Positions 17,007 through 46,467 of a stretch of 64,000 bases of DNA are shown piece after piece. Location of the stretch: the NCBI GenBank assembly GCA_041082215.1, contig JBDOIF010000093.1, positions 5,504 to 69,503 on the forward strand, given 5' to 3'. Numbering within the stretch: position 1 is the first letter of the stretch; each line of letters begins with the position of its first letter. The position numbers and the translations under genes were made by a program. Source of the stretch: Anaerolineae bacterium (lineage in GTDB: Bacteria; Chloroflexota; Anaerolineae; B4-G1; DUEL01). The notes beneath the pieces were generated by a model that worked only from the letters and a program-made list of their open reading frames with translations, was not told where the DNA came from and did no database searches.

Positions 17007-17765
17007 TCAGTAGACTTTCAGCAGCAGCAACAGGCCGCTGCACCCGGCCAGAAGGGCAGCCAGCCAGAAGTCGGCGCGGTGGAGCGGCAGCGGCGCGGGC
17101 CGTCCGCCGTTGGGGTCGAAGGCCCGCACTGCCGCCGCGTTCACCACATCATCTCCGTACCGCAGCGTGTTGGCGATGGTCGTCACGAGGAAGTGCTTGA
17201 GGGCCGCTGGGGGGCGCCGGGCACCTCCCCGCAACCAGATCGTCTGCCAGGTCACCCCTGCCATCTCCTCCAGCGCCCCCAGGAGATTCATCGCCAGCGC
17301 GGTGGCGAAGCCCAGCCCGCGCAAACCGAGCCGGTCAAACAGCAGGACGAGATCGGAGAGGGAAAGGGAGCCGATCCCCAACCCGAACGCCAGCGTCAGG
17401 CCGAAGGCCCGTCCGGCCATTTCCCAGCCGGCTGTCAGCCCCTCCCGCGAAAGGGGGAACGGCCCCAGCCAGACATCCGGCTCGCCGATCAGCAGTGGTC
17501 CCACCACCACCGCGGTCAGCACAAAGGCCCAGAACCGGGGGCGAAGGAGCATCCGCAATCCCTGGCGGCTCCAGGCCAGGCCGAAGGCCAGCTCAAAGAG
17601 CGCCAGACCCGGCAGCCATTCCCCTTTGACCAGAATAGCTGTCAGGGCCGCCCAGCCGGTGAACAGGAGATAACCCCACGGGCTCAATGGCCGCCTTCGC
17701 CCACAGCCACCCTGCGCCGCCCCAGCCGCCGCGCCACCGCGCCTCCCAGCGCCCACGCCCCCCAT
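17007..17765 (-). CDS. ecfT: ECF transporter transmembrane (T) component, CbiQ/EcfT family
   Basis: Polytopic membrane protein with the EcfT-type coupling helices region. The start is uncertain; a TTG at about 17687 overlapping the upstream stop is also possible, and the GC-rich N-terminal ORF extension is non-coding. Confidence 0.65.
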   Translation of the reverse strand: MGGVGAGRRGGAAAGAAQGGCGRRRPLSPWGYLLFTGWAALTAILVKGEWLPGLALFELAFGLAWSRQGLRMLLRPRFWAFVLTAVVVGPLLIGEPDVWLGPFPLSREGLTAGWEMAGRAFGLTLAFGLGIGSLSLSDLVLLFDRLGLRGLGFATALAMNLLGALEEMAGVTWQTIWLRGGARRPPAALKHFLVTTIANTLRYGDDVVNAAAVRAFDPNGGRPAPLPLHRADFWLAALLAGCSGLLLLLKVY

Positions 17766-18322
17766 CCGGCAAGCCCTCCGACAGCCAGCCGGATTACCAG
17801 GAGGATTGCCATGATCAGCACCGCTGCTGAAGGGTCCAGCCCCAGCATCCGGCTGCCCTCTTCCACCATCTTGTAGAAGACCTCCACGACATCCGCGCCG
17901 TAGACCAGCCGCATCATGACAAACTTGTGGGGCAGGCTCCACCCCACGGCCAGTGCCCCACCGAGGGCAAAGGTCCACGGCCGCAGCGAGCGGGAGAGCA
18001 GGAGGGCTCCCTCCATCAGCCCGCCCTCCACCAGGATGGCCACGAACGGCCCCAGCCGGGCGCCGCCAGGGCTGAGCAGCTTGATCAGCGCCGTCACGAC
18101 GCCGATCAGCAGGACCGAACCCCGCCTGGGCACAAAGTGGCGGCCCGTCAGGGCCACCGCTGCGCCAATGCCGCCCATCACCACGCCGGTCAGAAAGGTG
18201 TTGGCCTCAGGGGGAAAGAGGAGATGCAGGTAGCTACCCAGCGTCATCTCCACCACCCCCCAGAGCGCGCCGAACAACCCCACCGTGACCCAGTCTCGCA
18301 CCGTATAGGACGACATCTCCAC
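17684..18322 (-). CDS. membrane protein, probable ECF transporter substrate-specific (S) component
   Basis: About 200 aa with 5-6 TM helices, lying between the ecfA fusion and ecfT. Confidence 0.5.
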   Translation of the reverse strand: MEMSSYTVRDWVTVGLFGALWGVVEMTLGSYLHLLFPPEANTFLTGVVMGGIGAAVALTGRHFVPRRGSVLLIGVVTALIKLLSPGGARLGPFVAILVEGGLMEGALLLSRSLRPWTFALGGALAVGWSLPHKFVMMRLVYGADVVEVFYKMVEEGSRMLGLDPSAAVLIMAILLVIRLAVGGLAGWGAWALGGAVARRLGRRRVAVGEGGH

Positions 18323-18326
18323 CTCC

Positions 18327-19763
18327 TTAACTTCCCTGGAATGGCCCTTCGATCTGCCCGTCCTGCAACCTCCAAACTCGACCAGTGTACCGTTCTACCA
18401 GCCCCTGATCGTGGGTGATCAGGAGCACGGTCTGCCCGGCCCGGTTCAGCTCCGCTACAAAGTCCATCAACCGGGCCAGGTGCTCCGGGTCCTGCCCGGT
18501 CGTCGGCTCATCCAGGATCAGAAGCGCAGGGTGGAGGCTCAGAGTGGCCGCCAGGGCCAACCGCTGCTGCTGTCCGACACTGAGGGCATGGGTCGGCCGA
18601 TGGCGTAGCTCCAGAAGGTCGGCCTCCGCCAGTAACCTCTCCGTCTCCGCCTCCCCCTTCATCCCCAAATTGCGCGGGCCAAAGCGGACCTCCTCTTCCA
18701 CCGTATCGCACACCAGTTGGTGGAGCGGGGACTGCTGGAGGAAGCCCACCCGCGGCTGCCTGGCGACATGCCAGACCACCCGGCCCCGTCGGGGGCGAAG
18801 GAGGCCGGCCAGGACGCGGGCCAGGGTGGTCTTGCCCGCCCCGTTCGGCCCGACCAGGGCGGCGAACTCCCCCTGATGCAGCGTGAAGGAGCAATCCCGA
18901 AGGACCACCCCCTGACCGTCGTAGCCCACCGTGACCCCTCGAAGGGCCACCAGGGGCAGGCCAGGCGAAGGAGAAGGGGCAGAAAGTCGGGAAGGCAAGG
19001 GGGGCCGAACCCATGCCAGCACCCTGGCAGGAGGGCCGTCCGCCACCACCTGCCCGTCCGCCAGCCAGACCAGCCGGTCGGCATGGGCGAGGAAGGGGGC
19101 CAGCCGATGTTCGAGGACGACGACCGTGATACCCAGCCGGCGATGGAGCTCAACCAGGGTCCAGACGATCCGGCTCACCCCCTCTGCATCCAGATTCGCC
19201 GTAGGCTCGTCCAGGATCAGGATGGAGGGGCGCATGGCCAGGACAGCGGCGATGACCACCCGCTGCTGCTCCCCCCCTGAGAGGTACCGCACCGGCCGAT
19301 GGCGCAGGTCGGCGCACCCGACGGCGTCCAGGCTGTACTCGATGCGCGCGGCGACCTCCTCCGGGGGGAGGCCCAGGTTCCGCGGGCCAAAGCCCACCTC
19401 CTCCTCCACGGTCCCGCAGAAAAGCTGGGCTGCCGGGTTCTGAAGGACCAGCCCCACACGGGTAGCCATCTGCGCCACGGGATGCTGACGGGGGTCAAGC
19501 CCCCCCACCGAGATATGCCCCCTGACCTCGGCCGGCACCATCTGGGGGATCAACCCGACCAGCGCCTGGGCCAGTGTGCTCTTGCCCCCGCCGGAGGGAC
19601 CGCCGATGAGGAGGAAAGAGCCGGCAGGGACGGAAAGGCTCACTCCTCGCAGGGCATGGGCCTGGGGGTAACGGACGTGCAGGTCGCTGACCCGGATGGC
19701 AGGCTCCGTGGCAAACGTTGAGAGAGCCATCACGTCCACATACTCCGATACGCTTCCAACCAC
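18327..19763 (-). CDS. ecfA: ECF transporter ATPase, fused EcfA-EcfA' (two ABC NBDs)
   Basis: Two Walker A motifs (GGPSGGGKST, GPNGAGKTT), two LSGG-type signatures (LSGGEQQ, LSVGQQQ) and two Walker B motifs (ILDEPT). Confidence 0.88.
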   Translation of the reverse strand: MVGSVSEYVDVMALSTFATEPAIRVSDLHVRYPQAHALRGVSLSVPAGSFLLIGGPSGGGKSTLAQALVGLIPQMVPAEVRGHISVGGLDPRQHPVAQMATRVGLVLQNPAAQLFCGTVEEEVGFGPRNLGLPPEEVAARIEYSLDAVGCADLRHRPVRYLSGGEQQRVVIAAVLAMRPSILILDEPTANLDAEGVSRIVWTLVELHRRLGITVVVLEHRLAPFLAHADRLVWLADGQVVADGPPARVLAWVRPPLPSRLSAPSPSPGLPLVALRGVTVGYDGQGVVLRDCSFTLHQGEFAALVGPNGAGKTTLARVLAGLLRPRRGRVVWHVARQPRVGFLQQSPLHQLVCDTVEEEVRFGPRNLGMKGEAETERLLAEADLLELRHRPTHALSVGQQQRLALAATLSLHPALLILDEPTTGQDPEHLARLMDFVAELNRAGQTVLLITHDQGLVERYTGRVWRLQDGQIEGPFQGS

Positions 19764-20257
19764 TCCAGAGCCGCTTCGATCTGGCGGCGGCGGAAGTCGA
19801 AGACAAGCCGATTGAAGTCGTGCGGATCCCGGCGGGCAATCTGTTGCTCCATTCGCTCCAGTCGCTCCCGACAGGCAGCGGCCTGAGCTGCTACCAGCTC
19901 CTCAACCCCCTCAAGCCCCAATGCCCGGAAGAAGTAAAGCTTGGCAGGGAACTCCACCCGCATCTCCCGCATGGATGGGACGGGCTGGCGCAGCCACTCC
20001 AGAAAGCTGTGCTCTCCGGCCGGCGTGATGTGATAGACCTTGCGGGGCGGGCGACCCTCCTGAGGGAGGGGGGTGGAATAGACCAGGCCGGACCGCTCCA
20101 GTTCTTTGAGCGCCCCGTAGACATGGCTCAGCCCCATATACCAGACCTCTCCCAGCTCCCCCCGGACACGCCGGTAGAGGTCGTAGCCGTGCATCTCCCC
20201 CTGCTTGAGAAATCCCAGCAACACCTGTTCGAGTGGCAACCGCCTCCTGCCTCCCAT
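19730..20257 (-). CDS. PadR family transcriptional regulator
   Basis: LGFLKQGEMHGYDLYRRV...SHVYGALKELERSGLV winged-HTH of the PadR family. It overlaps the ecfA start, so the two are in one operon. Confidence 0.85.
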   Translation of the reverse strand: MGGRRRLPLEQVLLGFLKQGEMHGYDLYRRVRGELGEVWYMGLSHVYGALKELERSGLVYSTPLPQEGRPPRKVYHITPAGEHSFLEWLRQPVPSMREMRVEFPAKLYFFRALGLEGVEELVAAQAAACRERLERMEQQIARRDPHDFNRLVFDFRRRQIEAALEWLEAYRSMWT

Positions 20258-20596: not shown

Positions 20597-20683
20597 TGGT
20601 GCCGAAGGTGGGAGTCGAACCCACACGGCCGTACGGCCACTGCGCCCTGAACGCAGCGCGTCTGCCAATTCCGCCACTTCGGC
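20597..20683 (-). tRNA. tRNA-Leu (anticodon CAG), type II with long variable arm
   Basis: Reverse complement reads GCCGAAGTGGCGGAATTGGCAGACGCGCTGCGTTCAGGGCGCAG...GGTTCGACTCCCACCTTCGGCACCA. The anticodon loop is CTGCG-TTCAGGG-CGCAG and the CCA end is encoded. Confidence 0.9.
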
Positions 20684-24470: not shown

Positions 24471-24499
24471 TTGACTTCTCCGTCACTGTGTGTTATACT
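24471..24499 (+). promoter_or_regulatory. sigma70-type promoter TTGACT-17-TATACT with TGn extension
   Basis: ttgacttctccgtcactgtgtgttatact. It sits immediately upstream of the cobalamin riboswitch. Confidence 0.7.
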
Positions 24500-24504
24500 C
24501 TCCC

Positions 24505-24700
24505 CGACAACTGAATACGGCCTCGACAGAGGTGCCCCAAAGCCCGGATGTGAGGGGCACAAAGGGGGAAGACCGGTTCAAGTCCGGCGCTGTCCCGCAA
24601 CTGTAGGGACACGATTTGTCCGTGTCCAAGCCAGGATACCCGCCTCTGTCGGCGCCCACGCAACCTTCGCGGAAAGGGGGTGGCGCATGAAGGGCAAACA
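24505..24700 (+). promoter_or_regulatory. cobalamin (B12) riboswitch aptamer
   Basis: GGTGCCCC...AAGGGGGAAGACCGGTTCAAGTCCGGCGCTGTCCCGCAACTGTAGGGAC matches the conserved B12-element core (AAGGGAA-GGTGnAAnTCC...GCTGcCCCCGCAACTGTAA). Confidence 0.85.
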
Positions 24701-24710
24701 GACCTGCCAG

Positions 24711-24746
24711 GCCCTTCCCCGAGTAACGTGAGGGGAAGGGCTTTTT
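24711..24746 (+). terminator. intrinsic terminator (riboswitch expression platform)
   Basis: GCCCTTCCCC-gagtaacgtga-GGGGAAGGGC followed by TTTTT. Confidence 0.8.
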
Positions 24747-24857
24747 CAATAACCACCACAGAGACGCAGAGGACACGGAGGGAACCCGGTTACAGGAAAC
24801 TCCGTGAGCCTCATCTCCTTCGCATCTCAACGGTGAAGCATCTATGAGGAGGAAACT

Positions 24858-25946
24858 ATGTCCCGCGTATTCGTGGCGAGTGGACTCGCCCTGATCTTGC
24901 TTGCAGGTTCTGTCTTCCCGGCCTTTGCCAGCGACCCGGTGGGAACAGCGCTGGCTTATCTGGCCGCCCAGCAGCAGCCCGACGGTGGCTTCACCAACGG
25001 CTTCAGCGCCGGTTCCGACCTGGGCACTACCTGCGATGTGATCCTGGCCATAGCTGCCGCCGGGCAGGATGTCAGCACCTACCGCTCCTCCAACGACCGC
25101 TCGCCGCTGGACTACCTGGCCGCCCAGATAGCAGCCGGAGCAACGGAAAAAGTGGGCATCAAGGCTAAAGTGGTGCTGGCCCTGCTCGCCGCCGGGCAGG
25201 ACCCCGCCAGCTTCGCCGGCCACGATCTGCTGGCCGAACTGGAGGCCGCTTACGACGCGGAGAGCGGCAGCTACGGCTCCAATATCTTTGACCAGGCGCT
25301 GGTGATGCTGGCCCTCTTCAACGCCGGCCGACCAGTGCCGGAGGGAGCGGCCCAGTACCTGCTGGATAACCAGTGCACCGACGGAGCCTGGGCCCTCTTC
25401 GGCGGCACAACCCCCGGCACGGGCGACACCAACACCACCGCCCTGGCCATCCAGGCCCTCCTGGTCACCGGCCACCGGGACGACATCGGCACGGCCTTCG
25501 CCTACCTGCAGCGAGTCCAGAACACCGACGGCGGCTTTCCCTACCAGAACCCCTCTCCCTACGGCACCGACACCGACGCTAACTCCACCGCCTACGTCCT
25601 CCAGGCGCTGCTGGCAGCCGGCGAACCGCTGGGGAACTGGACCCCGGCCGGCACCGATCCGGCGGGGACGCTGGTCAATCTGTACGACCCCACCAGCGGG
25701 GCCTTCTTCTGGCAGACGGCCTATCCCTTCCCCAACGTCTCGGCCACTGCCCAGGCGATCCCCGCACTGCAGGGGTACACCTTCGTGAACCTGCCCCGGG
25801 TGGGCGCGACCATCGCCCCCCAGGCAGTGTCCACCATCCCCCTGCTGCCGGAGACCGGCGGGGCGGCTGGCTTGCCGGTAGCCCTCGGGGTCGCTGGTGC
25901 AGCGATGATCGGGGTGGGCCTTGCCCTGCGCCGCCGTGGCCGGTAG
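24858..25946 (+). CDS. secreted prenyltransferase/squalene-cyclase-like (alpha/alpha toroid) repeat protein with C-terminal LPXTG sorting signal; candidate cobalamin-binding alpha-domain protein
   Basis: Signal peptide; repeated QxxDGGF/W-type motifs (QQQPDGGF, NQCTDGAWALF, VQNTDGGFPYQ, DPTSGAFFWQ); C-terminal LPETGG followed by a hydrophobic stretch and RRRGR. It is the first gene after the B12 riboswitch, with AGGAGGA 7 nt upstream. Confidence 0.8.
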   Translation: MSRVFVASGLALILLAGSVFPAFASDPVGTALAYLAAQQQPDGGFTNGFSAGSDLGTTCDVILAIAAAGQDVSTYRSSNDRSPLDYLAAQIAAGATEKVGIKAKVVLALLAAGQDPASFAGHDLLAELEAAYDAESGSYGSNIFDQALVMLALFNAGRPVPEGAAQYLLDNQCTDGAWALFGGTTPGTGDTNTTALAIQALLVTGHRDDIGTAFAYLQRVQNTDGGFPYQNPSPYGTDTDANSTAYVLQALLAAGEPLGNWTPAGTDPAGTLVNLYDPTSGAFFWQTAYPFPNVSATAQAIPALQGYTFVNLPRVGATIAPQAVSTIPLLPETGGAAGLPVALGVAGAAMIGVGLALRRRGR

Positions 25947-26772
25947 CAAACGGGCCTGCAGGGGGGCGCGATACGTCGCCCTCCTGGTCGCTGGGGCGCT
26001 GCTCGTCGCCAGCCCGACGGCGGCGCAGGAGCCGCCCCATCGGGCCGGCCTGGTGGTGGTCCACGGGGACGGGCGGGCGGTCACCCGCTGCGTCTCCTTC
26101 GCCGAAGAGGCCATCACCGGAGTTGACCTGCTTCGCCGCTCCGGCCTCTCTGTGACCCTGTCCGCCTTCGGTGGGCTGGGATACGGCGTCTGCGCGATAG
26201 ACGGGGAGGGGTGCCAGGCCGAAAACTGTTTCTGCCAGTGCCAGGGGAGCCCCTGCGCCTACTGGGTCTACTCCCATCGCCAGCCGGATGGCTCGTGGGC
26301 CATCTCCGGCGTGGGGGCCAGCTCCTGGCAACTGCGGGACGGCGATGTGGACGGCTGGGTGTGGGGGGACGGGTCTACCGCTCCCCCACCCCTCCCCTTT
26401 GAGGCCATTTGCCCGGAAGATGCCGCTCCGCCTCCGACAGAACAACAGCCATCCCCGACAGCCGCCGGGTCTCCCACCGCACCGTCCACCCCACCCCCAT
26501 CGCCGACACATGCCATCGCCACCGCCACCCCTGCACCGCCCTCCGTCACAGCTACCCCAACCACCCCGCCAGGCCCCAGCCCGACCGTCCCCCCAACCCC
26601 CAATCCAACCATCCTCCCTACCCCCACGGACCGGCCTCCCGTATCCTCCCCCACCCCAACCTCCCAACCGGCAGCCGCTTCCGGTGTCTCTCCTGCCGGC
26701 TATGCCTTCTTCGGCCTCTTCACCCTGGGGCTGGTGGGCTTGCTCCTCTACGTCCTTTTGCGGCAAAAATGA
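25921..26772 (+). CDS. secreted Cys-rich DUF4430-like domain protein with Pro/Thr-rich stalk and C-terminal TM anchor; candidate cobalamin-binding beta-domain protein
   Basis: A signal peptide is followed by a globular domain of about 100 aa (CVSFAEE...GEGCQAENCFCQCQGSPCAYWVYSHRQPDGSWAISGVG...WQLRDGDVDGWVWGDGS), a long PT-rich linker and a C-terminal TM helix. It may start at TTG 25921 or GTG 25936. Confidence 0.65.
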   Translation: MPCAAVAGSKRACRGARYVALLVAGALLVASPTAAQEPPHRAGLVVVHGDGRAVTRCVSFAEEAITGVDLLRRSGLSVTLSAFGGLGYGVCAIDGEGCQAENCFCQCQGSPCAYWVYSHRQPDGSWAISGVGASSWQLRDGDVDGWVWGDGSTAPPPLPFEAICPEDAAPPPTEQQPSPTAAGSPTAPSTPPPSPTHAIATATPAPPSVTATPTTPPGPSPTVPPTPNPTILPTPTDRPPVSSPTPTSQPAAASGVSPAGYAFFGLFTLGLVGLLLYVLLRQK

Positions 26773-27569
26773 AACTCCGAAGCGCGATCTCCGGTTCCAT
26801 CTACGGGCTGAGTGCCGTCCTCGGCATCCTGGCCTTTCTGTACCCCTTCTTCCTCCACAGCCAGACGGCGGCTGCCGTAGGGCTGGCCCACAGCCAGGAC
26901 GCGCCGCTGGTGACGACGATGCTGGTGGGGCTTTCGCTGCTGGCCCTGCTGGTGGAAATGGAAGGGGAAGCGCTCAGCGCCAAGACGGTTGCCCTGCTGG
27001 GTGTGCTGGTCGCTCTCACCAGCGCCCTGCGCTTCCTGGAGGTCGCTTTCCCGATGCCCGGCGGCTTTTCCCCCATCTTCGCCTTCATCATCCTCGCTGG
27101 CTATGTCTTCGGCGGGCGGTTCGGCTTCCTGATGGGCGTGTTTACCCTGCTCGCCTCCGCCCTGATCACCGGAGGGGTAGGCCCCTGGCTTCCCTACCAG
27201 ATGTTCACTGCCGGCTGGGTCGGCCTCACGGCCGGCTGGCTCCCACGCAAAACCCAGCACACGACGCGCTCCATCCTCCTTCTCTCTATCTTCGCCTTCG
27301 CCTGGGGCTTTCTTTACGGCGCGGTGATGAACCTCTACTTCTGGCCTTTCGCCGTGGGGCCGGCCGGGCAGAGCTGGCAACCAGGCATCGGGCTGAAGGA
27401 GACCCTGGCCCGTTACGCCGCCTTCTACATCGTCACTTCGCTGGGATGGGACCTGATGCGGGCATTGGGGAACTTCGCCCTGATCCTGCTCCTGGGAGCG
27501 CCGGTGGTCCGGGTGTTCACCCGCTTCCGGCACCGCTTTCACTTCGAACTGGAGGCCAGCAATGGTTGA
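26769..27569 (+). CDS. polytopic membrane protein, probable ECF-type substrate-capture (S) component
   Basis: 267 aa with about 7 TM helices. It lies directly upstream of, and overlaps, the EcfT-A-A' fusion, and sits in the B12 riboswitch operon. Confidence 0.55.
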
Positions 27570-30330
27570 TGTGCGGGCCTGGCTTCTCTGGGCGCTGACG
27601 GGGACGGTGATCGCCTCCTCCACCCGCAACCCCCTCTATCTCTTCCTTCTGGTGCTGACGATCGCGGTGGTGGGCGCGGCCCGGCCATCCGGCTCCAGGC
27701 GGAAGCAGGCCCTATCCTCCCTCCGCTTTACAGCGGCAGCCGTCCCTCTGGCCGCCCTGTTCAACGGCCTGACCGCCCACATCGGCGATACGGTCCTTTT
27801 CCACCTGCCTGCCCGACTCCTGCTGATCGGCGGGCCGGTGACGGCGGAAGCCCTCATCTATGGGGCGATCAGCGGCCTCACACTGACCACAATTCTGAGC
27901 GCTTTCGCCGTCTTCAACCAGGTGACGCCGGTTCACGAACTGGTGGGCCTCACCCCACGCGCCCTGCACGAGACCGGCATCATCCTCTCCATCGCCCTCA
28001 CCTTCATCCCCCAGACGGGCCGCAGCCTGACCCGTATCCGGGAGGCCCAGGCTGTGCGCGGCCACCGCCTGCGGGGACTTCGCGGCTGGCTCCCTATCCT
28101 CATTCCCCTCCTGGTGAGCGGGATGGAACAGTCTATGGGGCTGGCCGAGGCGATGGTCGCCCGCGGGTACGGCTCCGTTTCGGACCGGGACCATTCCACC
28201 CGCACACGGGGGCTGCTGGCCCTGGGACTGCTCGGCGTGCTCGGGGGGTGGCTGGGGATGCTTTTCCTCCCTGCCTGGAAGTATGCTGCGCTGGTCGGGT
28301 TGCTGGCCGGCGGCCTTCTCGTCATCAGCGCACTGTGGCTGGCAGGACGGGCCGCTCCACGGACCGCTTACCGCCCCAGGCGGTGGACCCCTCAGAGCAC
28401 GCTGGTCGTTCTGGGCTGTGGGGCGGCGCTGGCTGCGGTCCTGTTGCCCTGGCCCGGAGCCGAAACGGCAGCCTATACACCCTACCCCAGCCTCACCCTC
28501 CCCCCCTTCGACCCGGCTGTCGGGCTGGGCCTGCTGGGGCTGCTGATGCCAGCACTGGCTGCAGAACGGCGACCTGCACGAGAGGAGGCCCGGGGACCGG
28601 TCCGTTCCTGCGCTCCTGTGACCTCATCCCCTTCTCCTGCGAGGAAAGGGGGAGGGAACGGGGATAAGGTCTCCAGACCCCTATCAGATGCCCCCTTCAT
28701 CCAGTTCAGCCGGTTCACCTATACTTACCCCCAGGCCCTCCACCCTGCCCTCTCCGGGGTGAACCTCCGCATTGAGGAAGGGGAATTCGTGCTGGTGACC
28801 GGCGTCTCCGGTGCAGGCAAGTCCACCCTGCTGCGGGCCCTCAACGGCCTGGTTCCCCACTTCAGCGGGGGGAAGGTGCAGGGCCACGTCTCCGTCGCCG
28901 GGCACAGCCCCGCCGTAGAAGGGCCGCAGGTGCTCAGCCGGGTCGTCGGCTTCGTCTTTCAGGACCCCGAGGCCCAGTTCGTCGTGGATCGGGTGGAGGA
29001 CGAGATCGCCTTTGCGCTGGAGAACCTGGCCCTCCCCCCTGCCCAGATGCGCCTGCGGGTGGAGGAGGTGATGGACCTCCTGGGGCTTACCCCACTGCGG
29101 GATCGGCCGCTGGAGAGCCTCTCCGGAGGGGAGAAGCAACGGGTCGCCATCGGCGCAGCCCTGGCCCTCCGCCCCCGCGTCCTCGTCCTGGACGAACCCA
29201 CCTCCCAGCTCGACCCCTGGTCGGCCGACGAGGTGTTGCAGGCCCTGGTGCGCCTGAACCGGGAGCTGGGCCTCACCGTTATCCTGGCCGAACACCGGCT
29301 GGAGCGAGTCCTCCCCTACGCGGACCGGCTGGTCTACCTGCCGGCCCCCTCGGAGGGGAGGCGGCGGAACGGGCGGGTGCTGAGCGGCCCACCCCGCCAG
29401 GTCCTTCCCCGGATGGAGCTGACGCCGCCGCTGGTCACCCTGGGCAAGGCTCTGGGCTGGGACCCGCTCCCCATTACCCTGGAGGAAGCGCCAGCGACCA
29501 GCGGCGAGCTACGGACAACCAGTAACCAGCAACCAGCAACGAGCTACAGGCAACCGGCAACCCTTCTCCGCATACGGGGGCTTTCTTTCAGCTACGGGGC
29601 CACCCCAGCCCTGCGCGGTGTGGACCTGGAGGTGGGGATGGGAGAGCTGGTGGCATTGATGGGGCGCAACGGCTCCGGCAAGACCACGCTGCTGCGATGC
29701 GTCGTGGGGCTGCTGCACCCTTCAGGGGGAGAGATCGAACTGGAAGGTCGCTCTCTTGTGGGGCTGGACCCGACCCGCATTTGTCGGCAGGTGGGGTATC
29801 TGCCCCAGGAGCCGGACGATCTGCTCTTTGCCGAGACGGTGGCAGAGGAACTGGCCGTCACCCTGCGCAACCACGGCCTTCTCGACCGCCCGCCTATCTC
29901 CCCTGCTACCCTGCTGGAGCGCCTGGGGCTGGGGGGTGTGGCGACGGCCTACCCGCGCGACCTGAGCGTTGGCCAGCGGCAGCGGGTAGCGCTGGGGGCG
30001 GTCACCGTCACCCGGCCCCGGCTCCTGCTCCTGGACGAGCCAACGCGGGGGATGGACTACCTCGCCAAGCAGGGACTGGTCCGCCTGCTCCGGGAATGGC
30101 AGGCGGAGGGGGTCGGTGTCCTGCTGGTGACCCACGATGTGGAGCTGGCAGCTCAGGCAGCGGACCGCGTGGTGGTGCTGGACCAGGGGGAGGTGGTCGC
30201 AGCGGGCCCCCCATCGGAAGTGCTTTCCGGCCCCTCCCTTTTCGCCCCCCAGATCGCCCGGCTCTTTCCGGGCACGGGCTGGCTGACCGTCGAGGAGGCG
30301 CTGGCAGGGCTGGCTAGGGGGAGTGGATGA
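27562..30330 (+). CDS. triple fusion EcfT-EcfA-EcfA' (ECF transporter T component fused to two ABC ATPase domains), 922 aa
   Basis: An N-terminal CbiQ/EcfT membrane domain of about 230 aa is followed by a Pro-rich linker. NBD1 carries [17 protein letters not shown] and VLDEPTS. NBD2 carries [17 protein letters not shown] and LLDEPT. Confidence 0.85.
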
Positions 30331-31405
30331 GCTGACGGTAGAAGGCCACCGTCTCCGCCGCCACCCGGGCCTGGGTGTAGTGAGCCAGTACCCGCTCCCG
30401 CCCCTTCCGGGCCAGCTCTGCCCGCAGCTCCGGCTCGGCCATCAGCCGGGCCAGATGGCCCCGCAGCTCCTCCACGTCCCCCTCCGGAAAGAGCAGGCCG
30501 GCGTCGCCGATCACGTGGGGGATCTCACCGCAGTCCGATCCGACCACCGGCACGCCGCAGGCCATCGCCTCCACCAGCACCCGCCCAAACTGCTCGATCC
30601 AGTTGGGCCGGGAGCGGGAGGGGAGGACCAGGACATCCAGCCGGTGGTAAAAGCGGGTCATCTGGGTGGAGGGAAGCGTGCCCAGGAAAGCGACCCGGTC
30701 CCCAATGCCCAGCCCTTTGGCCAGCTTCTCCAGATCGGCCCGCAGGGGGCCGCTGCCCAGCACCTCCACCCGCACCTCCCTCAGCTCTGCCGCCGCCCGC
30801 AGCAGGAGGTCAGCCCCTTTCTCCTCCACCAGCCGCCCGGCAAAACCGACCACAAAATCCTCCCGCCGCTCCCTCCGGGATGGAGGCGCAAGAAGGTGGG
30901 GGTCCACCCCGAACTGGGGGATAACGACCAGAGGGCCGATGTACCCTTTCTCCCGCCACACCCGGGCCGAGGTGTGGCTGCCGGCGATGGCCCCGTCGGC
31001 ATGGTGGAGGCAATATTTTTCAAAAAAGGAGAAGGGAGGGGGATAGCGACGGAGGAGATTCTGCCAGCTAAACCAGAGGGTGCGGCAACCCACCTGGCGG
31101 GCCAGCACCATCCCGTGAAAGGTCGCCAGATTGTACGGCTCCTCGTCCAGGTGGACCAGGTCAGGCCGGAAGGAGCGGATATGGCGGGCCAGGCGGGGGT
31201 AGAAGTGGAGGTGGAAGTTGCCGTTAAGGGCCATCCACTCGACCGCCAGCTCATACCCCTGCGTATGGGCACGCTCCAGGGGGAGCGTTCCGCGCTCGTC
31301 CCGCCAGTAGGGAGGCACGACCACCCGCAGCTCCAGATCGTCGTGGGAGGCGATCTCCTCCAGCTTGCGCTGGTAGATACCAACGATGCAGGCCTTGGAG
31401 ACCAT
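30314..31405 (-). CDS. glycosyltransferase family 4
   Basis: GT-B fold with EX7E-type motif ([21 protein letters not shown]). The ATG at 31405 (MVSKACIVG) is preferred because the upstream ORF extension runs into MITE copy B. Confidence 0.8.
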
Positions 31406-31432
31406 CAGGATGCGCAAGGGGTGTTCTCCACT

Positions 31433-31624
31433 GGGCGTATTTCCATTTCGGGGCGAGTGGTCCTCTCGCCCGCTGATGGATCGCGAATCCCACGAATGGC
31501 CCAAATACAGCGAACAGGAGGGATCCCTGCCCCATTCGCGGTATTCATTTCCATTCGTGCCATTCGTGTTTCCCCAGGTCCGGCCCCGGTCAGGGACATC
31601 CCGCCCCCAGACTGAAATACACCT
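31433..31624. mobile_element. MITE-like element copy B (about 190 bp) flanked by a 9-bp TTCTCCACT target-site duplication
   Basis: The element runs from GGGCGTATTTCCATTTCGGGGCGAGTGG to GCCCCCAGACTGAAATACACC. The flanks ttctccact / ttctccact are identical. It is about 85% identical to copy A. Confidence 0.65.
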
Positions 31625-31960: not shown

Positions 31961-33514
31961 ATGGGAAAAAAGAGCGGGCTATGGACCGTTGCGGTTGCGG
32001 CGGTGCTTGTTCTGGGGACCCTGTCGGGATGGGCAAATGCAGCGCCGTCGCTCCAGGGGACGGGAGAGAACCTGCTGAAGAACCCGGGGTTTGAGGGGCT
32101 CACCTGCAACCCGGCCTCTCCGCCGGGGTGGTGCTACGATAACTGGACCCGCGATACCTACAACGGGATTCCCTATGGGGAGATCTTCACTCCACAGGGA
32201 TGGGTCACGTTCTGGAGCGAGGGGACGAACCCGGCAGATGGGCGGAAGTACGGTCGGCCGGAGTGTAAGGTCATCCCCAAGCAAGCCCCCTTCCTGGGCC
32301 CTCCGGCCCGCATCCGCAGCGGGAACTACGCGATCATGCAGTTCGGTTTCTTCCGCGCCATTGACTCCGGCGTGTACCAGGTCGTCACCGGGCTGACGCC
32401 CCACGCCATCGTCCAGGCCTCCGCCTATGCCCACGCCTGGGCCTGCGGCGACGACGAGCACGGGGCCTACTCCTGCGGCGAGCCGTATCAGATGCTCTTC
32501 CGCGTCGGCATAGACCCCAACGGCGGCACCAATCCCTGGAGCCCGACCGTCATCTGGGCCAGCGGCTACTCGTACGACGAGTACCGCCTCATCGGCCCGG
32601 TGCAGGCCGAGGTGGGCGATGCTGGCACGGTTACCGTTTTTCTGCGGGCAACGGCCAAGTGGCCCCTGAAGCACAACGATGTCTACTGGGACGATGCCTC
32701 CCTGATCTACGTCACCCCGCCGGCCACACCGACCAACACCCCGCTGCCCCCGCCCCCCACGGCAACGCCCGGCCCCTCTCCCACTCCGCTGCCCACCCCC
32801 ACCCCCCGGCCCGATGGCGCCATCGTCCACATCGTCCAGCCGGGCGACACGCTCTTCGGCATCGCTCTCCAGTACGGCGTGCCGATGGAGCAGATTCAGC
32901 AGTTGAATGCCGGCTCCATCGGCCCCAACAATCTGATCCAGGTGGGTCAGGAGCTGGTCATCGCCATACCCTCCGCCACCCCCACCCCGGTTCCGCCCCC
33001 CACTCAGGTGGCAGAGGTCACCGCCACTCCTGCGCCCGCCGAGGTAGGGGCGGTCTGTGTGCTGGCCTACCATGACCGAAACGGGGATACCTTCCGGCAG
33101 CCAGACACAGAAGAGCCATTGCCCAACGCCGTCTTCTCCCTGGGCGATGCGAGCGGCCTTCTGGGGCAATACACCACCGACGGCCTGAGCGAGCCCTACT
33201 GCTTCACCGGGCTGGCCCCGGGCACCTACCGGGTGGCCATGCAGCCGCCAGCGGGCTATGTGGCCAGCGGGCCTTCCGACATGGCGCTCGCAATGGGCAC
33301 AGGGGGAGCGCTGGAAATAGCTATGGGGGCCAGGCGAGGCGAAGCACCGGCCACACCCGAAGGGTCGGAAGTGGTCCAGCCGGAACCCACAGAGGAGGCC
33401 ACCTCGGGCCTGCCGCTGGTGCTCCGCCGGGCGGCCGGCGTCAGCGGCATCCTGCTTCTGGGGCTGGCACTGGCAGTGGCCGTCCTCTTCGTCCTCTCCC
33501 GCCTGCGACGGTAG
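31961..33514 (+). CDS. secreted multidomain protein: carbohydrate-binding-like N-terminal domain, Pro/Thr linkers, LysM domain, SdrD-B/Cna-B-like domain, C-terminal TM anchor
   Basis: Signal peptide; NLLKNPGFE... beta-sandwich region; LysM (IVHIVQPGDTLFGIALQYGVPMEQIQQLN); a VCVLAYHDRNGDTFRQPD...GTYRV region; hydrophobic C-terminus followed by RLRR. Confidence 0.75.
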   Translation: MGKKSGLWTVAVAAVLVLGTLSGWANAAPSLQGTGENLLKNPGFEGLTCNPASPPGWCYDNWTRDTYNGIPYGEIFTPQGWVTFWSEGTNPADGRKYGRPECKVIPKQAPFLGPPARIRSGNYAIMQFGFFRAIDSGVYQVVTGLTPHAIVQASAYAHAWACGDDEHGAYSCGEPYQMLFRVGIDPNGGTNPWSPTVIWASGYSYDEYRLIGPVQAEVGDAGTVTVFLRATAKWPLKHNDVYWDDASLIYVTPPATPTNTPLPPPPTATPGPSPTPLPTPTPRPDGAIVHIVQPGDTLFGIALQYGVPMEQIQQLNAGSIGPNNLIQVGQELVIAIPSATPTPVPPPTQVAEVTATPAPAEVGAVCVLAYHDRNGDTFRQPDTEEPLPNAVFSLGDASGLLGQYTTDGLSEPYCFTGLAPGTYRVAMQPPAGYVASGPSDMALAMGTGGALEIAMGARRGEAPATPEGSEVVQPEPTEEATSGLPLVLRRAAGVSGILLLGLALAVAVLFVLSRLRR

Positions 33515-41967: not shown

Positions 41968-43197
41968 TCAACCGGGGAGAGGTTCGCCGAAAAGCTCGTC
42001 CGCCCGGGCCAGCAGCTCCGCCCTCCGGTCCGGCTCCGTTCCCTTTGTCTCCAGATACCGCTCCAGAAGCTGCCGTGGGGTCATCTCTTCCGGGGAAAGA
42101 TTCCCCAGCCGCACCCGCGCCTCCCGCTCCACCTCCCGGGTGATGGAGCCGACGAAAGCGGCATCCGTCAGCAACGAACGGATATCCTGATCCCGTACCA
42201 GCGGCTCCTGATCGGCCCGCAGATGGAGGATCACCCGCACAACCGCATCCCTCAGGTCGTGGGCCGCCACTGCCCTCCGGAGCGCCGCCAGCGGGTCTTC
42301 GGCCCTCCGCAGGTCCGCCCTCACGGTGACAAAGGGGCGGGCGTCCACCTCAACGAACTTCCACACGGCTTCCCCCCGGGCCAGCTCCACCCAGCAGAAC
42401 CCCTTAGGCTCTCCCTCCTCGCCGAAGTCAACCCGCTCCAGGCTGCCGGCGTAGACGACAGGGGGGTGCCCTCCGCCGTTGAGGCTCTGATGCTTGTGGA
42501 TGTGGCCCAGAGCGACGTAATCCCAGGCCGGGTCGGCAAGCACAGAGCCCAGGACCACCGCGTCCCGCCCGATCATCACGCTCCGCTCCGAGCCATAGGT
42601 CGCACCGGAGACAGTGAGGTGGGCTGCCAGCACAGCGGGGATCTCTGGCTCAAGCCCGGCTGCCAGCGCCTGGATGTTCCCCGTGACGATGCGCTGGAGC
42701 TCCTGATCCAGTTGTTCGATGGAGAGGCCCCGGAACTGGTCGTGGGCCAGGAGGCGCTGGCGAGCCGGATAAGGGACGGTGGCAACCTGAACCGGGCCGT
42801 GGTGGGTCTCGATCCGGTGCACCTCTTCTTCCCGCCCCACAATGACGTTCGGCACGCCCAGGGTGTGGAAAATGTCTATGCTGGAAGCTCTCTGGACCAC
42901 TGCGGGCAGGTCGTGGTTGCCCACCAGGAGGAGGACAGGGATCCCGGCATCGGCGAGCCGCTTGACGCGGCGGGCGAAGGCCCGCTGATAAGTGGGGTTG
43001 GGGTCACGGGTTTTGTAGGCGTCGCCGGCAAAAAGCACCAGGTCCGCCTCATGCTCCAGCGCATACTCGACCAGCTCGTCAAAGCGACGGAGGAAGTCGA
43101 GCACCCGCTGATTCACCCCCGTGGTCGGGTCCAGGCGGCCGTAGTTTTCCATGCCGATGTGGAGATCGGCGAAGTGGAGGATCCGAATCCGGTTCAT
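41968..43197 (-). CDS. sbcD: Mre11/SbcD-family DNA repair nuclease
   Basis: Calcineurin-like phosphoesterase motifs (HFADLHIG, GDAYK, GNHDLP, GHIHK) are present. Confidence 0.85.
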   Translation of the reverse strand: MNRIRILHFADLHIGMENYGRLDPTTGVNQRVLDFLRRFDELVEYALEHEADLVLFAGDAYKTRDPNPTYQRAFARRVKRLADAGIPVLLLVGNHDLPAVVQRASSIDIFHTLGVPNVIVGREEEVHRIETHHGPVQVATVPYPARQRLLAHDQFRGLSIEQLDQELQRIVTGNIQALAAGLEPEIPAVLAAHLTVSGATYGSERSVMIGRDAVVLGSVLADPAWDYVALGHIHKHQSLNGGGHPPVVYAGSLERVDFGEEGEPKGFCWVELARGEAVWKFVEVDARPFVTVRADLRRAEDPLAALRRAVAAHDLRDAVVRVILHLRADQEPLVRDQDIRSLLTDAAFVGSITREVEREARVRLGNLSPEEMTPRQLLERYLETKGTEPDRRAELLARADELFGEPLPG

Positions 43198-43293
43198 AGG
43201 GACAGCTCCCGCAGTAAACAGACGTGAGGTGTTCCCCTCAGCCTGTGTACCAACCCTTCGTCGGTTGTGATGAAGTCGGCGCCGCGCTCCGTT

Positions 43294-44982
43294 CTAGATG
43301 CCTTCCGACTCGTCCTCCCCCCTCAACACCGCCCGGCCCCGGGCCAGCACCGCCTCCGGTTCCTCCTCCCGCACCCCCATCTCGGCGTAGAACTCGGGGG
43401 TACCATAGGTGCGGGTGCGGACCACCACCGGCATCGGTACGGCGTGGCCCAATACCAGTGCCTGCTGGCGGGTATCCAGCCGGGCCAGCACCTCCCGCAG
43501 CGGCTGGCTTCCGGCGATGCCGGAGAAGACCGCCCGGATGTCCGCCTCGTCGTCCAGGAGGCAGGTGACGCGGGTGCCGATCTGGCTCATCACCTCCGGG
43601 TCAATGCCGCTGGGCCGCTGGTCCACGATGAGCAGGGTGACGTTGTACTTGCGCAGCTCCCGGGCGATGGTGCCGAAGATGGTGTGGCGGGCAACGGCGG
43701 GGTCGAGGAACTTGTGGGCCTCCTCGACGGTGATGATCAGCGGGCGCGGCTCCTCCCCACCCCTGCCCAGCGCCGCCTCCTTACGCTCCACATAATGGGC
43801 GTGGATACGGCGGGTGATGTAGTTGGCCGCCAGGATGTAGGCCTCGAGGCTGTTGCCGAACCGCCCGAACTCCAGCACCACACTGATCCCCCGGTCCAGG
43901 TACTTCAGAATCTGGCTCACGGGGTCCTCCTCCACTTTCGGCTGGAGAAACTCGAAGCGGCGGAACATCCCCAACTTGCGCTGGATCGCCCCCAGGGTCC
44001 CACCGTGGAGTGTGCCCCGCTCCAGCGCCTCGTCCAGGTCCTCCAGCCGGTCCTCCTCATTCAGCAGCCGGGCGATCCATCCCGGCCCCAGCCTGCGGCG
44101 GAGGAAGTAGAGGGCGCCCACCTGCACGTCGGTGAGATCCATCAGCCCGGAGAGGCTGTCCACGTCCTCCGGCTCGATCTGGTCGTACCCGATGCGGACG
44201 ACGCCGTCCACCTTGCTGCCGCGCCGACGGGAGGAGTCCGGGTCGAGGGTGAAGACGGAGACCTCGCCGGTGGGGAAGAGCTGGCGAAGCCCTTTGATCT
44301 CCCGCCGGGCCTCGTCCTGGCTCTTCCAGCCGTACTCGTTGTGCATGTCGAAGATCAGGTTGACCGCCACCCGCTGGTGGATGATGCCAGCCAGCAGGAG
44401 GCGGGTGAGGAAGGTCTTGCCGGTGCCGGTCTTGCCGAAGACCCCCGCCGACCGTTCGACGAAGCGGTTGAGGTCGAGCGCCACGTGGACCCCCTCCATT
44501 TCCAGCGGGTCGCCGATGTAGAAGTAGCCCGGCCGGCTCTCCTGGCCGAAGATGAGGGCCACGTCCTCCTCGCTGGCAGTGTAGACGGGGGCGAAGTGGG
44601 CGGGGATGGTTTTGACCGGCTTCGGCTCGTCGCTCCCTTCCTCCACCATCAGCATCGGCGCGACGTGGATGCGGCCGAAGGTGGAGGTGCCCTCGTGAAC
44701 CCGGGCGATGAAGGGGTCGGATACATCGGGCGGGGTCTTCTCGATGAAGGGGTTGGTGGCATCCAGGGCCACGTCGTTGATGATGGAAAAGAACCGGCGG
44801 CCGGAGCGGCCGTGGATAACCACATACCGTCCCACCGCCAGCCCCTCGATCTGGGTCTGGGGGTCGAGTTTCACTTCCAGCCCCCTGGAAAGGCTCCCCC
44901 CCACGACGATGCCCAGCCGCTGGGCAGGGGCAGGCTCAGGGGCGCGAGGGAACCATCGGTCCAGCTCTTCTGAATGGGCCAT
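43294..44982 (-). CDS. herA: HerA-like ATPase/helicase (DUF87, FtsK-HerA superfamily) with N-terminal HAS-barrel
   Basis: An N-terminal barrel region (LGIVVGGSLSRGLEVKL...VGRYVVIHG) is followed by a Walker A motif (GKTGTGKTFL), the helical insert and a Walker B motif (LLIVDQ). Confidence 0.8.
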   Translation of the reverse strand: MAHSEELDRWFPRAPEPAPAQRLGIVVGGSLSRGLEVKLDPQTQIEGLAVGRYVVIHGRSGRRFFSIINDVALDATNPFIEKTPPDVSDPFIARVHEGTSTFGRIHVAPMLMVEEGSDEPKPVKTIPAHFAPVYTASEEDVALIFGQESRPGYFYIGDPLEMEGVHVALDLNRFVERSAGVFGKTGTGKTFLTRLLLAGIIHQRVAVNLIFDMHNEYGWKSQDEARREIKGLRQLFPTGEVSVFTLDPDSSRRRGSKVDGVVRIGYDQIEPEDVDSLSGLMDLTDVQVGALYFLRRRLGPGWIARLLNEEDRLEDLDEALERGTLHGGTLGAIQRKLGMFRRFEFLQPKVEEDPVSQILKYLDRGISVVLEFGRFGNSLEAYILAANYITRRIHAHYVERKEAALGRGGEEPRPLIITVEEAHKFLDPAVARHTIFGTIARELRKYNVTLLIVDQRPSGIDPEVMSQIGTRVTCLLDDEADIRAVFSGIAGSQPLREVLARLDTRQQALVLGHAVPMPVVVRTRTYGTPEFYAEMGVREEEPEAVLARGRAVLRGEDESEGI

Positions 44983-44985
44983 CGG

Positions 44986-45426
44986 TCACTTCTCCTCCAA
45001 TACGCCCAGGCGCTTCAGGTAGGCAGCGATATACCTGGCGAACTCCCGGAAGTCGGCACTTCCGTGTTGGAGGTGCTCATAGACCTTTTCCGGGTCCACC
45101 CGGAGATATTCATGCACCAGGATGTTTCGGAAGCCAACGATAGGAGCCAACCGGTGGGCAAAGTCCTCAGGAAGCACGCCTGCCTTTCCCAGAGCCTCGA
45201 TCGCCTCCCGGTAGTCCTGAATACGGTATGAGAAATCAGCAGTGATGATGTGTACGGCGATGTCTGCTATAGCCTGCGCCCCAAGCTGAAGGCTGTGCTG
45301 GATCGCGCGGTACTTCACGAAATCAGAAAGGATATCCGCGAAGGAGAAGGCACGGTAATGGTCCAATTCGGCGGCATAAGCCTCCAGGGCCTCCAACCGC
45401 TCCAGCACGGTCTCTTTATCTACCAT
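44986..45426 (-). CDS. hepT: HepT-like (DUF86) nucleotidyltransferase-substrate-binding toxin
   Basis: RNILVHEY (Rx4HxY) motif. It overlaps the upstream MNT gene by 11 nt. Confidence 0.8.
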   Translation of the reverse strand: MVDKETVLERLEALEAYAAELDHYRAFSFADILSDFVKYRAIQHSLQLGAQAIADIAVHIITADFSYRIQDYREAIEALGKAGVLPEDFAHRLAPIVGFRNILVHEYLRVDPEKVYEHLQHGSADFREFARYIAAYLKRLGVLEEK

Positions 45427-45859
45427 CGGCTCCTCCGGCCAGCAGACGCTGAAGAAGATACTTCTCCTTTATCCGGCGCAATGGTTTCGTGTCTATGTAA
45501 TCCCTGATCGCTCTCACCTCAAACCGCTCACGGGTTACCGGGTCCCGGCAGTGTAACAATCGTCCGTCCCGGTACACCCGGTGGCGAAGGAGAGGGGAGG
45601 CGTCGGCCAGATCGGCCACATAGACGTCGTCCCTATTGAACAGGCCGACGAGTTCTCCGATGAGCGCCAGGAGCCGATCGAACCGCTCCCCCTCCGGCAC
45701 GTCCGGGCCGAAGAGCACGGCGATGTCCACATCGGAGAGGGGGCCGGCATCGCCGCGGGCCTGGGAGCCGTAGAGGTAGGCCAGCACGACCCCGTACCGC
45801 TCGAAGATGGACCGCAGCCGCTCCTCATAGGGGCCCAAATCGCCCAGCGGGCCGCTCAT
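45416..45859 (-). CDS. mntA: MNT-type nucleotidyltransferase antitoxin
   Basis: YLYGSQARGDAGPLSDVDIAVLF is the GSx9-13DxD NTase motif. Confidence 0.8.
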   Translation of the reverse strand: MSGPLGDLGPYEERLRSIFERYGVVLAYLYGSQARGDAGPLSDVDIAVLFGPDVPEGERFDRLLALIGELVGLFNRDDVYVADLADASPLLRHRVYRDGRLLHCRDPVTRERFEVRAIRDYIDTKPLRRIKEKYLLQRLLAGGADGR

Positions 45860-46467
45860 CCCAGCCCCTCCCTCAACCTGCGGAGCAGCCCATCCAGCCG
45901 CAAGAGGTCGCCTGCCAGCAGCCGGGCCAGCTCCCGCCCTGCCTCAACCAGGAAATCCGCCCGCTCCTGTGGAGGGCGGGCTGCCGCCGCCACCCGGAGG
46001 CTGGTCGCCAGAAGCTCATCGGCGGGGATGCCGGGGGCGTCCAGCACCAGCCGGAAGTAATCGAACCGCTGGGTGAAGGACACCACCTCGTCGGGGCTGC
46101 ACTGGTAGAGAACATCCATCATCACTGGCGGCTGAGGGGGGATGCGGTGGAAAATGCGGTCCCCCTCCCGATACCCCACCGCCAGCACGCCCACCTCGAT
46201 GGGCACCTGCCGGTTGAACCGCTGGTCGAGGACGGCCTCCTCCTCTGGCGATTCGAGCAGCGCCAGATGGCGCATCATCAGGTCGTCCTCCACCGCCACA
46301 TCGTAGATCAGGCCGTAGACAAAGGTCCCCTGGGCGTGGCCTCTGGCCCGCACGAACGAGCCGAAGGCGGGGATATCGGGCTGCATCACCCGGCAGCCGA
46401 CGACGAACCCCTGGTTGGAGACCCGCATCACACGTCCGACCGGAATGGTAGTGTTGCCCATTACCAT
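45856..46467 (-). CDS. hypothetical protein with HAS-barrel-like N-terminus
   Basis: IPVGRVMRVSNQGFVVGCRV...GSFVRARG...GLIYDV resembles the N-terminal barrel of HerA-family proteins. It is translationally coupled to nurA upstream and MNT downstream. Confidence 0.4.
   Translation of the reverse strand: MVMGNTTIPVGRVMRVSNQGFVVGCRVMQPDIPAFGSFVRARGHAQGTFVYGLIYDVAVEDDLMMRHLALLESPEEEAVLDQRFNRQVPIEVGVLAVGYREGDRIFHRIPPQPPVMMDVLYQCSPDEVVSFTQRFDYFRLVLDAPGIPADELLATSLRVAAAARPPQERADFLVEAGRELARLLAGDLLRLDGLLRRLREGLG

Follow-up and report, generated by a model that had tools for sequence, protein, structure and literature searches.

A cobalamin-riboswitch operon in a Chloroflexota bacterium encodes a probable two-piece, transcobalamin-like corrinoid capture system with an ECF importer

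[quoted passage not shown] Both matters are raised by an operon of four genes, here called g1 to g4, that follows a cobalamin riboswitch in a 64-kb stretch of contig JBDOIF010000093.1 from a Chloroflexota bacterium, Anaerolineae/Thermoflexia-like in its affinities. The whole of this stretch is referred to as the window, and positions are counted from its first base. An earlier note, made from the sequence alone, had proposed that the operon encodes a transcobalamin-like B12 capture pair, split over two surface proteins, together with an ECF importer of its own. From a computational analysis of the locus and its relatives, we find that the operon is probably a ligand-repressed system for the capture and import of corrinoids, that is, of vitamin B12 or another cobamide and possibly of cobinamide. 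The locus and its relatives provide a concrete case of a conserved, riboswitch-linked surface pair that has both transcobalamin folds and a dedicated ECF importer.

The control of the operon can be approached through its leader, in which the following elements were recognized:

24471..24499, plus strand: promoter-like site of sigma-70 type, TTGACT-17-TATACT with an extended -10 TG (consensus match only, 10/12)
24513..24661, plus strand: cobalamin riboswitch aptamer, RF00174 (75.8 bits, E 7e-17, full model, positions 1-189)
24709..24748, plus strand: intrinsic terminator forming the expression platform, with its stem at 24709-24743 and UUUUU at 24744-24748 (folding)
24846..24852, plus strand: ribosome-binding site GAGGAGG, 5 nt ahead of the g1 ATG at 24858 (sequence reading)

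The aptamer is matched over its full length, and the gathering score of the Rfam model is 31.5 bits. The terminator stem has 12 bp and is G+C-rich, with a loop of 11 nt and five U residues directly after it, and it folds with -29 kcal/mol (z = -3.5 against shuffles). This hairpin was located by sequence reading and folding; a consensus scanner missed it because that scanner accepts loops of up to 8 nt. With a hairpin and U-tract placed after the aptamer and ahead of the start codon, the leader is predicted to be a transcription-terminating OFF riboswitch platform. The B12 aptamer and the intrinsic terminator claimed in the earlier note were thus both recovered, whereas its consensus promoter fared less well: the promoter-like site is present and ends 14 bases ahead of the aptamer, but the call is suggestive only, since a consensus scan of the 8-kb region found 2 such sites where 0.6 were expected.

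Behind this leader g1 to g4 all lie on the plus strand, at or near the places where they had been noted before, and each open reading frame overlaps the next, by 11 (or 26), 4 and 8 nt. The four genes are translationally coupled, and gene calls on an identical public contig yield the same four products. A GT4 glycosyltransferase gene (30314-31504, minus strand) is convergent with g4 and shares its last 17 nt; because of this overlap the operon comprises four genes and there is no space for a terminator between g4 and the glycosyltransferase gene. The genes and their parts are:

24858..25946, plus strand: g1, LPETGG-anchored secreted alpha/alpha toroid, 362 aa (Pfam, NCBIfam, AlphaFold2 model, Foldseek)
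24858-24929, plus strand: signal peptide of g1
~24930-25787, plus strand: toroid of g1
25845-25862, plus strand: LPETGG of g1
25936..26772, plus strand: g2, secreted transcobalamin-beta-like (SLBB) domain, probably of the SCO2322 family, with stalk and transmembrane anchor (GTG start; alternative TTG at 25921)
25936-26028, plus strand: signal peptide of g2
26029-26415, plus strand: domain of g2
26416-26700, plus strand: stalk of g2
26701-26772, plus strand: transmembrane helix of g2
26769..27569, plus strand: g3, ECF transporter S-component, 266 aa, about 7 hydrophobic segments (PF07155, PF12822)
27562..30330, plus strand: g4, EcfT-EcfA-EcfA' fusion, 922 aa (CbiQ and two ABC_tran domains in one open reading frame)
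27562-28566, plus strand: T domain of g4
28567-28695, plus strand: linker of g4 (43 aa)
~28696-29361, plus strand: ATPase 1 of g4
~29554-30330, plus strand: ATPase 2 of g4

What kind of protein does the first gene encode? Repeats of the SQHop_cyclase_N/C families were found in g1 above the Pfam thresholds, and its AlphaFold2 model (pLDDT 89.3) has the fold of an alpha/alpha toroid. In a Foldseek search the model was closest to the single-domain cyclases 8paj and 8pak (E 9e-9), followed by a series of alpha domains from transcobalamins (E 5e-7 to 3e-6). In NCBIfam the equivalog family SCO2321_fam (NF053823) is matched with E 2.2e-35 and 122 bits, under the curated cut-off of 300; g1 is related to the SCO2321 family but is not an equivalog of it. 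The C terminus reads LPETGG-AAGLPVALGVAGAAMIGVGLAL-RRRGR, which gives the sortase signal, hydrophobic segment and basic tail of an LPXTG protein, and the L, P and G of the motif are invariant across 37 g1 homologues. The TLxTC motif of a sortase was not found within the window. A cyclase activity was considered for g1 and rejected, as the protein is without the DxDD motif of class II (squalene-hopene type) cyclases and its signal peptide and LPETGG anchor place it outside the cell.

The second gene encodes a domain of about 130 aa with 7 Cys, followed by a stalk of 95 aa, of which 63% is Pro/Thr/Ser, and by a C-terminal transmembrane helix. When its AlphaFold model (pLDDT 92.7) was compared with known structures by Foldseek, the top 17 matches were all transcobalamin, haptocorrin, intrinsic factor or the DUF4430 structure 3u7z. 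The modelled fold is that of a transcobalamin-type SLBB beta-grasp, and the match is specific to corrinoid binders. Pfam gave no match for g2, including DUF4430 (PF14478) at E <= 0.1, and the likeness to DUF4430 is one of fold because searches of Pfam and of the PDB by sequence found nothing for g2. The NCBIfam model SCO2322_fam (NF040672) gives 17.8 bits against a cut-off of 85, and 44 of 46 relatives match it weakly, reaching at most about E 1e-10 and in all cases staying below the curated cut-off. Precomputed assignments to PF28005, the 'SCO2322' family of Pfam, are found on more distant g2 homologues and not on the closest ones. The cysteines of the g2 loop, with the motif CFCQC, are absent from actinobacterial small proteins, and the Cys-rich loop therefore seems to be a Chloroflexota elaboration and not a conserved ligand site; it is probably stabilized by disulfides. 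A role for this loop as a conserved metal or cobalt-ligand site was rejected, as the loop is also absent from some Chloroflexota homologues. BtuH, considered as a DUF4430 protein, was set aside since it is DUF4465.

The remaining two genes supply a complete ECF-type ATP-binding cassette (ABC) importer, by family and motif criteria. For g3 both PF07155 (E 7.5e-12, 46 bits) and PF12822 (E 5.9e-11, 43 bits) are above cut-off. In g4 the T domain matches CbiQ (PF02361) with 47.5 bits against a cut-off of 25 and has the x-Arg-Gly coupling motifs VRG (residue 165) and ARG (200), while ECF_ATPase_1 is matched with 346 bits against a cut-off of 315. Both ATPases are complete, with Walker A at residues 414 and 701, Walker B at 540 and 821, and signature motifs present. 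The junction between T and ATPase has no stop codon; in the closest relatives the T gene ends in a stop and the ATPase has a Met of its own.

Such a module might be thought to import cobalt, or nickel, for B12 synthesis in the manner of CbiMNQO, with the surface proteins serving as accessory metal proteins or being unrelated wall proteins. Cobalt transporters are commonly under cobalamin riboswitches (PMC3766115), g4 matches both CbiQ and cbiO models, the g2 domain is Cys-rich, and the deposited entry 3u7z carries the description 'putative metal binding protein'. However, the CbiQ and cbiO models match every ECF module, g3 matches general vitamin-type S-component families, and the distribution of the Cys-rich loop among homologues leaves no conserved metal site. 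As neither CbiM nor CbiN is present and the fold of g2 matches corrinoid binders, cobalt uptake is unlikely, and we would give it a very slight chance.

These results bear on most of what the earlier note had said about the four products. Its sortase-anchored toroid and its S-component-like membrane protein both agree with the family matches and predicted features of g1 and g3. For g2, which it had likened to DUF4430, the secreted Cys-rich domain, the Pro/Thr stalk, the membrane helix and the DUF4430-like fold stood, but membership by sequence did not. The Pfam families that it had expected were found in part, with SQHop_cyclase present in g1, Cobalamin_bind falling short of its cut-off and DUF4430 missing from g2. 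The structural likeness to transcobalamin that it had anticipated was seen for single models of both proteins.

How would such a system work? At high cellular cobalamin the aptamer would bind its ligand, and the hairpin and U-tract would end transcription ahead of g1; at low cobalamin the four coupled genes would be expressed. The g1 protein would be exported and joined by sortase to the wall through LPETGG, as the counterpart of the transcobalamin alpha domain. The g2 protein would also be exported and be held by its C-terminal helix in the membrane, from which its flexible stalk of about 95 residues would bear the beta-grasp, the counterpart of the transcobalamin beta domain. We infer that g1 and g2 form a heterodimer which, in the manner of the paired domains of transcobalamin, holds a single corrinoid in its clamp, and that they pass it to the S-component g3 in the membrane. 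Import of the corrinoid, the presumed substrate of the transporter, would then be driven with ATP by the EcfT-EcfA-EcfA' protein g4.

Is the arrangement peculiar to this genome? A scan for the g2 domain, made with one genome per species, found relatives in 375 species genomes, and the best 80 of the 375 all belong to Chloroflexota (Anaerolineae, Thermoflexia, Caldilineae, Chloroflexia and Dehalococcoidia). Among the loci with sufficient sequence, 62 of 67 have a toroid gene upstream of the small one. At least 55 of 68 loci encode an ECF ATPase, and the order toroid-small-S-T-AA' is kept in 39 of 48 complete loci. With the Rfam model a cobalamin riboswitch was found ahead of the homologous operon in all 11 loci tested first and in 3 of 9 further loci, several of which are without upstream sequence. 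An nhmmer model built from the aptamers that Rfam had found placed an aptamer upstream of the toroid gene in 53 of the 56 eligible Chloroflexota loci, eligible meaning that enough upstream sequence was present, at a median distance of 265 nt. Of 54 relatives searched, 47 have a hairpin with a U-run after the aptamer (about 43 convincing, a few doubtful), and the sequences of the stems vary by lineage; that the hairpin is kept with differing stems fits a conserved terminating platform. The two surface proteins are consistently separate. The 81 small-protein matches are all 96-233 aa long and the 120 toroid matches listed are all 318-384 aa, and no fused toroid-small homologue was found among them.

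The fusion of transporter subunits in g4 is another matter. The earlier note had treated the 922-aa EcfT-EcfA-EcfA' protein as part of what defines the system; the fusion itself is present, but EcfT is separate from a fused EcfA-EcfA' in 52 of 56 relatives. Three other loci have EcfT-EcfA-EcfA' fusions directly after the small-protein gene (L005, 1838-4534; L007, 1703-4573; L029, 7297-10284). They are distant relatives whose T domains show 43-45% identity, and no S-component gene was detected in any of the three loci. They are independent fusions. The triple fusion was accordingly rejected as a system-defining feature and is a rare local variant.

In some Chloroflexota relatives the cluster contains, or is preceded by, a further cobalamin riboswitch, and extra toroid paralogues are present as well (L003, 7915-8105 and 8326-10548; L010, 7913-8111; L072, 3932-4087 and 4754-4912; L025, 3097-5997). 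Among these paralogues, that of L003 has 740 aa, and that of L025 is a multi-toroid protein of 966 aa.

The arrangement also reaches a second phylum. In Micromonospora (L082, 506-13044) a cobalamin riboswitch is followed by a toroid gene and an SCO2322 gene, and a second riboswitch by a toroid-like gene, a gene for a 314-aa protein, CbiQ and a double ATPase; adjoining genes, transcribed divergently, encode MeaB and the B12-dependent methylmalonyl-CoA mutase. Kitasatospora (L083, 5784-7837) has the order riboswitch-toroid-SCO2322, and Embleya (L081, 6238-7573) a riboswitch followed by a toroid gene. A search of plasmids with g1 gave a single match, an Embleya record without annotation. When profiles were aligned with hhalign, the small protein matched the Micromonospora PF28005 protein with 98.2% probability (E 2.7e-14) and the toroid matched an actinobacterial riboswitch-linked toroid with 99.4% (E 1.5e-21), which confirms at the level of sequence profiles that the Chloroflexota and actinobacterial proteins are homologous. 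The earlier note had suggested looking for the pair downstream of B12 riboswitches. In dozens of Chloroflexota genomes the four genes are in synteny, the riboswitch recurring with them, and the arrangement is found again in Actinomycetota.

The families SCO2321 (NF053823) and SCO2322 (NF040672, PF28005), to which g1 and g2 are distantly related, take their names from consecutively numbered genes of Streptomyces coelicolor, and we found no published function for either. As at our locus, Micromonospora and Kitasatospora have the toroid and PF28005 genes side by side after a cobalamin riboswitch, whereas the Chloroflexota small proteins have in addition the Cys-rich loop, a long stalk and a transmembrane anchor. 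Many actinobacterial toroid homologues carry the NCBI name 'peptidase'.

That name fits a second explanation, in which g1 and g2 would be no ligand clamp: the toroid would be a wall-modifying or lipid-binding enzyme and g2 an unrelated beta-grasp protein, both co-transcribed with a B12 importer sufficient in itself. The best structural matches of the toroid are indeed terpene cyclases, S-components of ECF transporters bind substrate at high affinity without soluble binding proteins (PMC5997447; 10.1101/864751), and in some loci, such as L083 and L033, the pair has no ECF module nearby. Yet g1, besides having no DxDD, is outside the cytoplasm and away from isoprenoid diphosphates, and fused toroid-SLBB proteins exist in Firmicutes and animals (PMC1796856). 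Because the toroid/small pair stays together and is riboswitch-linked across two phyla even without an ECF module, we favour a B12-related role for the pair, and we leave a small chance to the explanation that g1 and g2 do not clamp a ligand.

How far is this design already known? The animal carriers transcobalamin, haptocorrin and intrinsic factor combine PF01122 with a DUF4430-type C-terminal domain in one polypeptide, where the operon uses the two genes g1 and g2. They differ further from the bacterial pair, in which one fold is wall-anchored and the other membrane-anchored, sequence similarity is marginal or absent, and delivery would be to an ECF importer instead of an endocytic receptor. 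Among bacteria, Burroughs, Balaji, Iyer and Aravind defined a transcobalamin-like clade of SLBB domains in 2007, described SLBB proteins with signal peptides, Gram-positive anchors, fusions to or associations with toroids and CbiO/CbiQ operons, and predicted a role in B12 scavenging for the transcobalamin-like surface proteins (PMC1796856). Secreted or anchored SLBB proteins and alpha/alpha toroids encoded with CbiO-like ATPases and CbiQ-like membrane proteins are common to their account and ours. They stressed fused toroid-SLBB proteins in Firmicutes and regarded the clade as a Gram-positive innovation, whereas here the two are always separate among the matches listed, the SLBB domain appears to belong to the divergent SCO2322 family and the hosts are Chloroflexota and Actinomycetota.

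Two further sources come close. In RegPrecise there are cobalamin-riboswitch operons of Clostridium in which two unnamed genes precede cbrVUT, for example CLOLEP_00712-13-cbrVUT-btuR, and a related entry in Chloroflexus (PMC3766115). The proven B12 importer of the ECF type, ECF-CbrT (cbrTUV) of Lactobacillus delbrueckii, takes up cobalamin and cobinamide and needs no surface binder (PMC5997447); it shares the general ECF module with our locus, but g3 has no detectable similarity to its entry 6fnp. In our reading of the literature we found no description of an SCO2321/SCO2322-type split pair as a B12 system, of the spread of such a pair in Chloroflexota and Actinomycetota, or of the arrangement of wall anchor and membrane stalk, and we found no account in which the binding of B12 to bacterial proteins of this kind was tested biochemically.

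The nearest experimental precedent points elsewhere. In the study of Lactobacillus sakei lsa1836-1840, two separate secreted proteins beside an ECF transporter were modelled as the transcobalamin beta and alpha domains (10.1101/864751). That operon resembles ours in encoding an S-component, a T component, an ATPase with A and A' fused, and a pair of separate secreted proteins; its gene order differs, it was assigned to heme uptake, and no riboswitch is mentioned in the text consulted. It suggests a third explanation, that the transcobalamin-like pair scavenges heme or another non-corrin tetrapyrrole, as proposed for Lsa1839/Lsa1840 with the ECF transporter Lsa1836-1838. Deletion of the L. sakei operon affected heme uptake according to that study, and ECF heme importers exist (PMC7299338). 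The comparison with L. sakei, however, is by layout and modelled folds, there is no evident reason for a heme importer to be repressed by B12, and the Micromonospora cluster adjoins a B12-dependent mutase. Heme uptake is the main rival to corrinoid uptake, and it is unlikely because control by cobalamin riboswitches is so consistent, in 53 of the 56 Chloroflexota loci and in Actinomycetota as well; we see for it a slight chance of being right.

The 2007 prediction, the L. sakei operon and the RegPrecise cbrVUT operons also mean that the earlier note overstated its case in calling the architecture undescribed. The design had been predicted and is widespread, and the locus is a variant of it. 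What remains of the split transcobalamin-like B12 uptake system that the note proposed is borne out in silico by the riboswitch, the folds and the synteny, but the claims of DUF4430 membership, of the fusion as a feature and of novelty fell away.

Several observations weigh against corrinoid uptake as the function of the operon and keep our confidence in it below certainty. Judged from models, the toroid resembles single-domain terpene cyclases at least as much as transcobalamin. DUF4430 is matched by none of 46 g2 family members at E <= 1, and the g2 family, whether as a single sequence or as a 46-sequence profile, matches no solved PDB chain by sequence. The same is true of g3, which as a single sequence or as a 35-sequence profile matches no solved ECF S-component chain at E <= 10 in a PDB set that includes the ECF-CbrT entry 6fnp, and by sequence g3 appears to resemble no known B12 S-component. 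Folding of the region 24636-24750 gave no convincing antiterminator. Cobalamin riboswitches control not only cobalt transporters but also B12-independent isozymes (PMC3766115), and the lone operon of this layout to be studied experimentally, that of L. sakei, was linked to heme uptake (10.1101/864751). Against these stand the near-constant riboswitch, the transcobalamin-type fold of g2, the transcobalamin alpha domains among the structural matches of g1 and the persistence of the pair in two phyla. The sequence of g1 points weakly the same way: its match to Cobalamin_bind (PF01122) has 21.5 bits, below the Pfam cut-off of 25, and aligns residues 290-316 only, and 9 of its top 120 homologues carry PF01122. 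Corrinoid capture and import remains the probable function.

A wider reading can be put forward more tentatively. The SCO2321-like toroid and the SCO2322-like beta-grasp could be a widespread two-component bacterial transcobalamin of Chloroflexota and Actinomycetota that acts as a two-tier relay, in which the wall toroid would capture cobamides at the cell surface and the beta domain, swinging on its long stalk, would shut the clamp and bring the ligand across the wall to a dedicated ECF S-component. We regard this as a speculative possibility that is a good deal more likely to be wrong than right. By analogy with BtuM, the Cys loop of the Chloroflexota proteins might add ligand chemistry, for example thiol ligation or decyanation.

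Elsewhere in the window, a second ECF-like cluster occupies 17007-20257 on the minus strand, without a riboswitch match. Encoded there are a PadR-type regulator (19730-20257), two ABC ATPase domains in a single protein of 478 aa (18327-19763), a membrane protein of the Trep_Strep family (17684-18322) and a weakly CbiQ-like protein (17007-17978). Between this PadR/ECF-like cluster and a gene for a family-5 solute-binding protein lies a tRNA gene with a long variable arm (20600-20683, minus strand, 51.9 bits). Downstream of the operon, at 31961-33514 on the plus strand, a secreted 517-aa protein has LysM and SdrD_B-like domains, Pro/Thr-rich linkers and a C-terminal transmembrane anchor, a stalk-plus-anchor style as in g2. 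Further on, at 41968-47639 on the minus strand, genes for a calcineurin-like phosphoesterase (41968-43197), a HerA-like helicase (DUF87, 43294-44982) and a NurA nuclease (46461-47639) are grouped.

Homologues were found in hundreds of Chloroflexota species, and at least two genera of actinomycetes, Micromonospora and Kitasatospora, share the arrangement. If the operon does capture and import corrinoids, two named but uncharacterized families (SCO2321 and SCO2322/PF28005) would gain a function, and the prediction of 2007 would reach beyond Firmicutes. It would also help to clarify whether systems of the L. sakei type import heme or corrinoid, would be relevant to how the animal B12 carriers arose, and would matter for B12 cross-feeding in environmental communities rich in Chloroflexota. 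Should the two-tier relay be true as well, the pair would give the first demonstrated case of a substrate-capture accessory that serves an ECF transporter with B12, and would represent a free-standing prokaryotic stage of the B12 carriers of animals.

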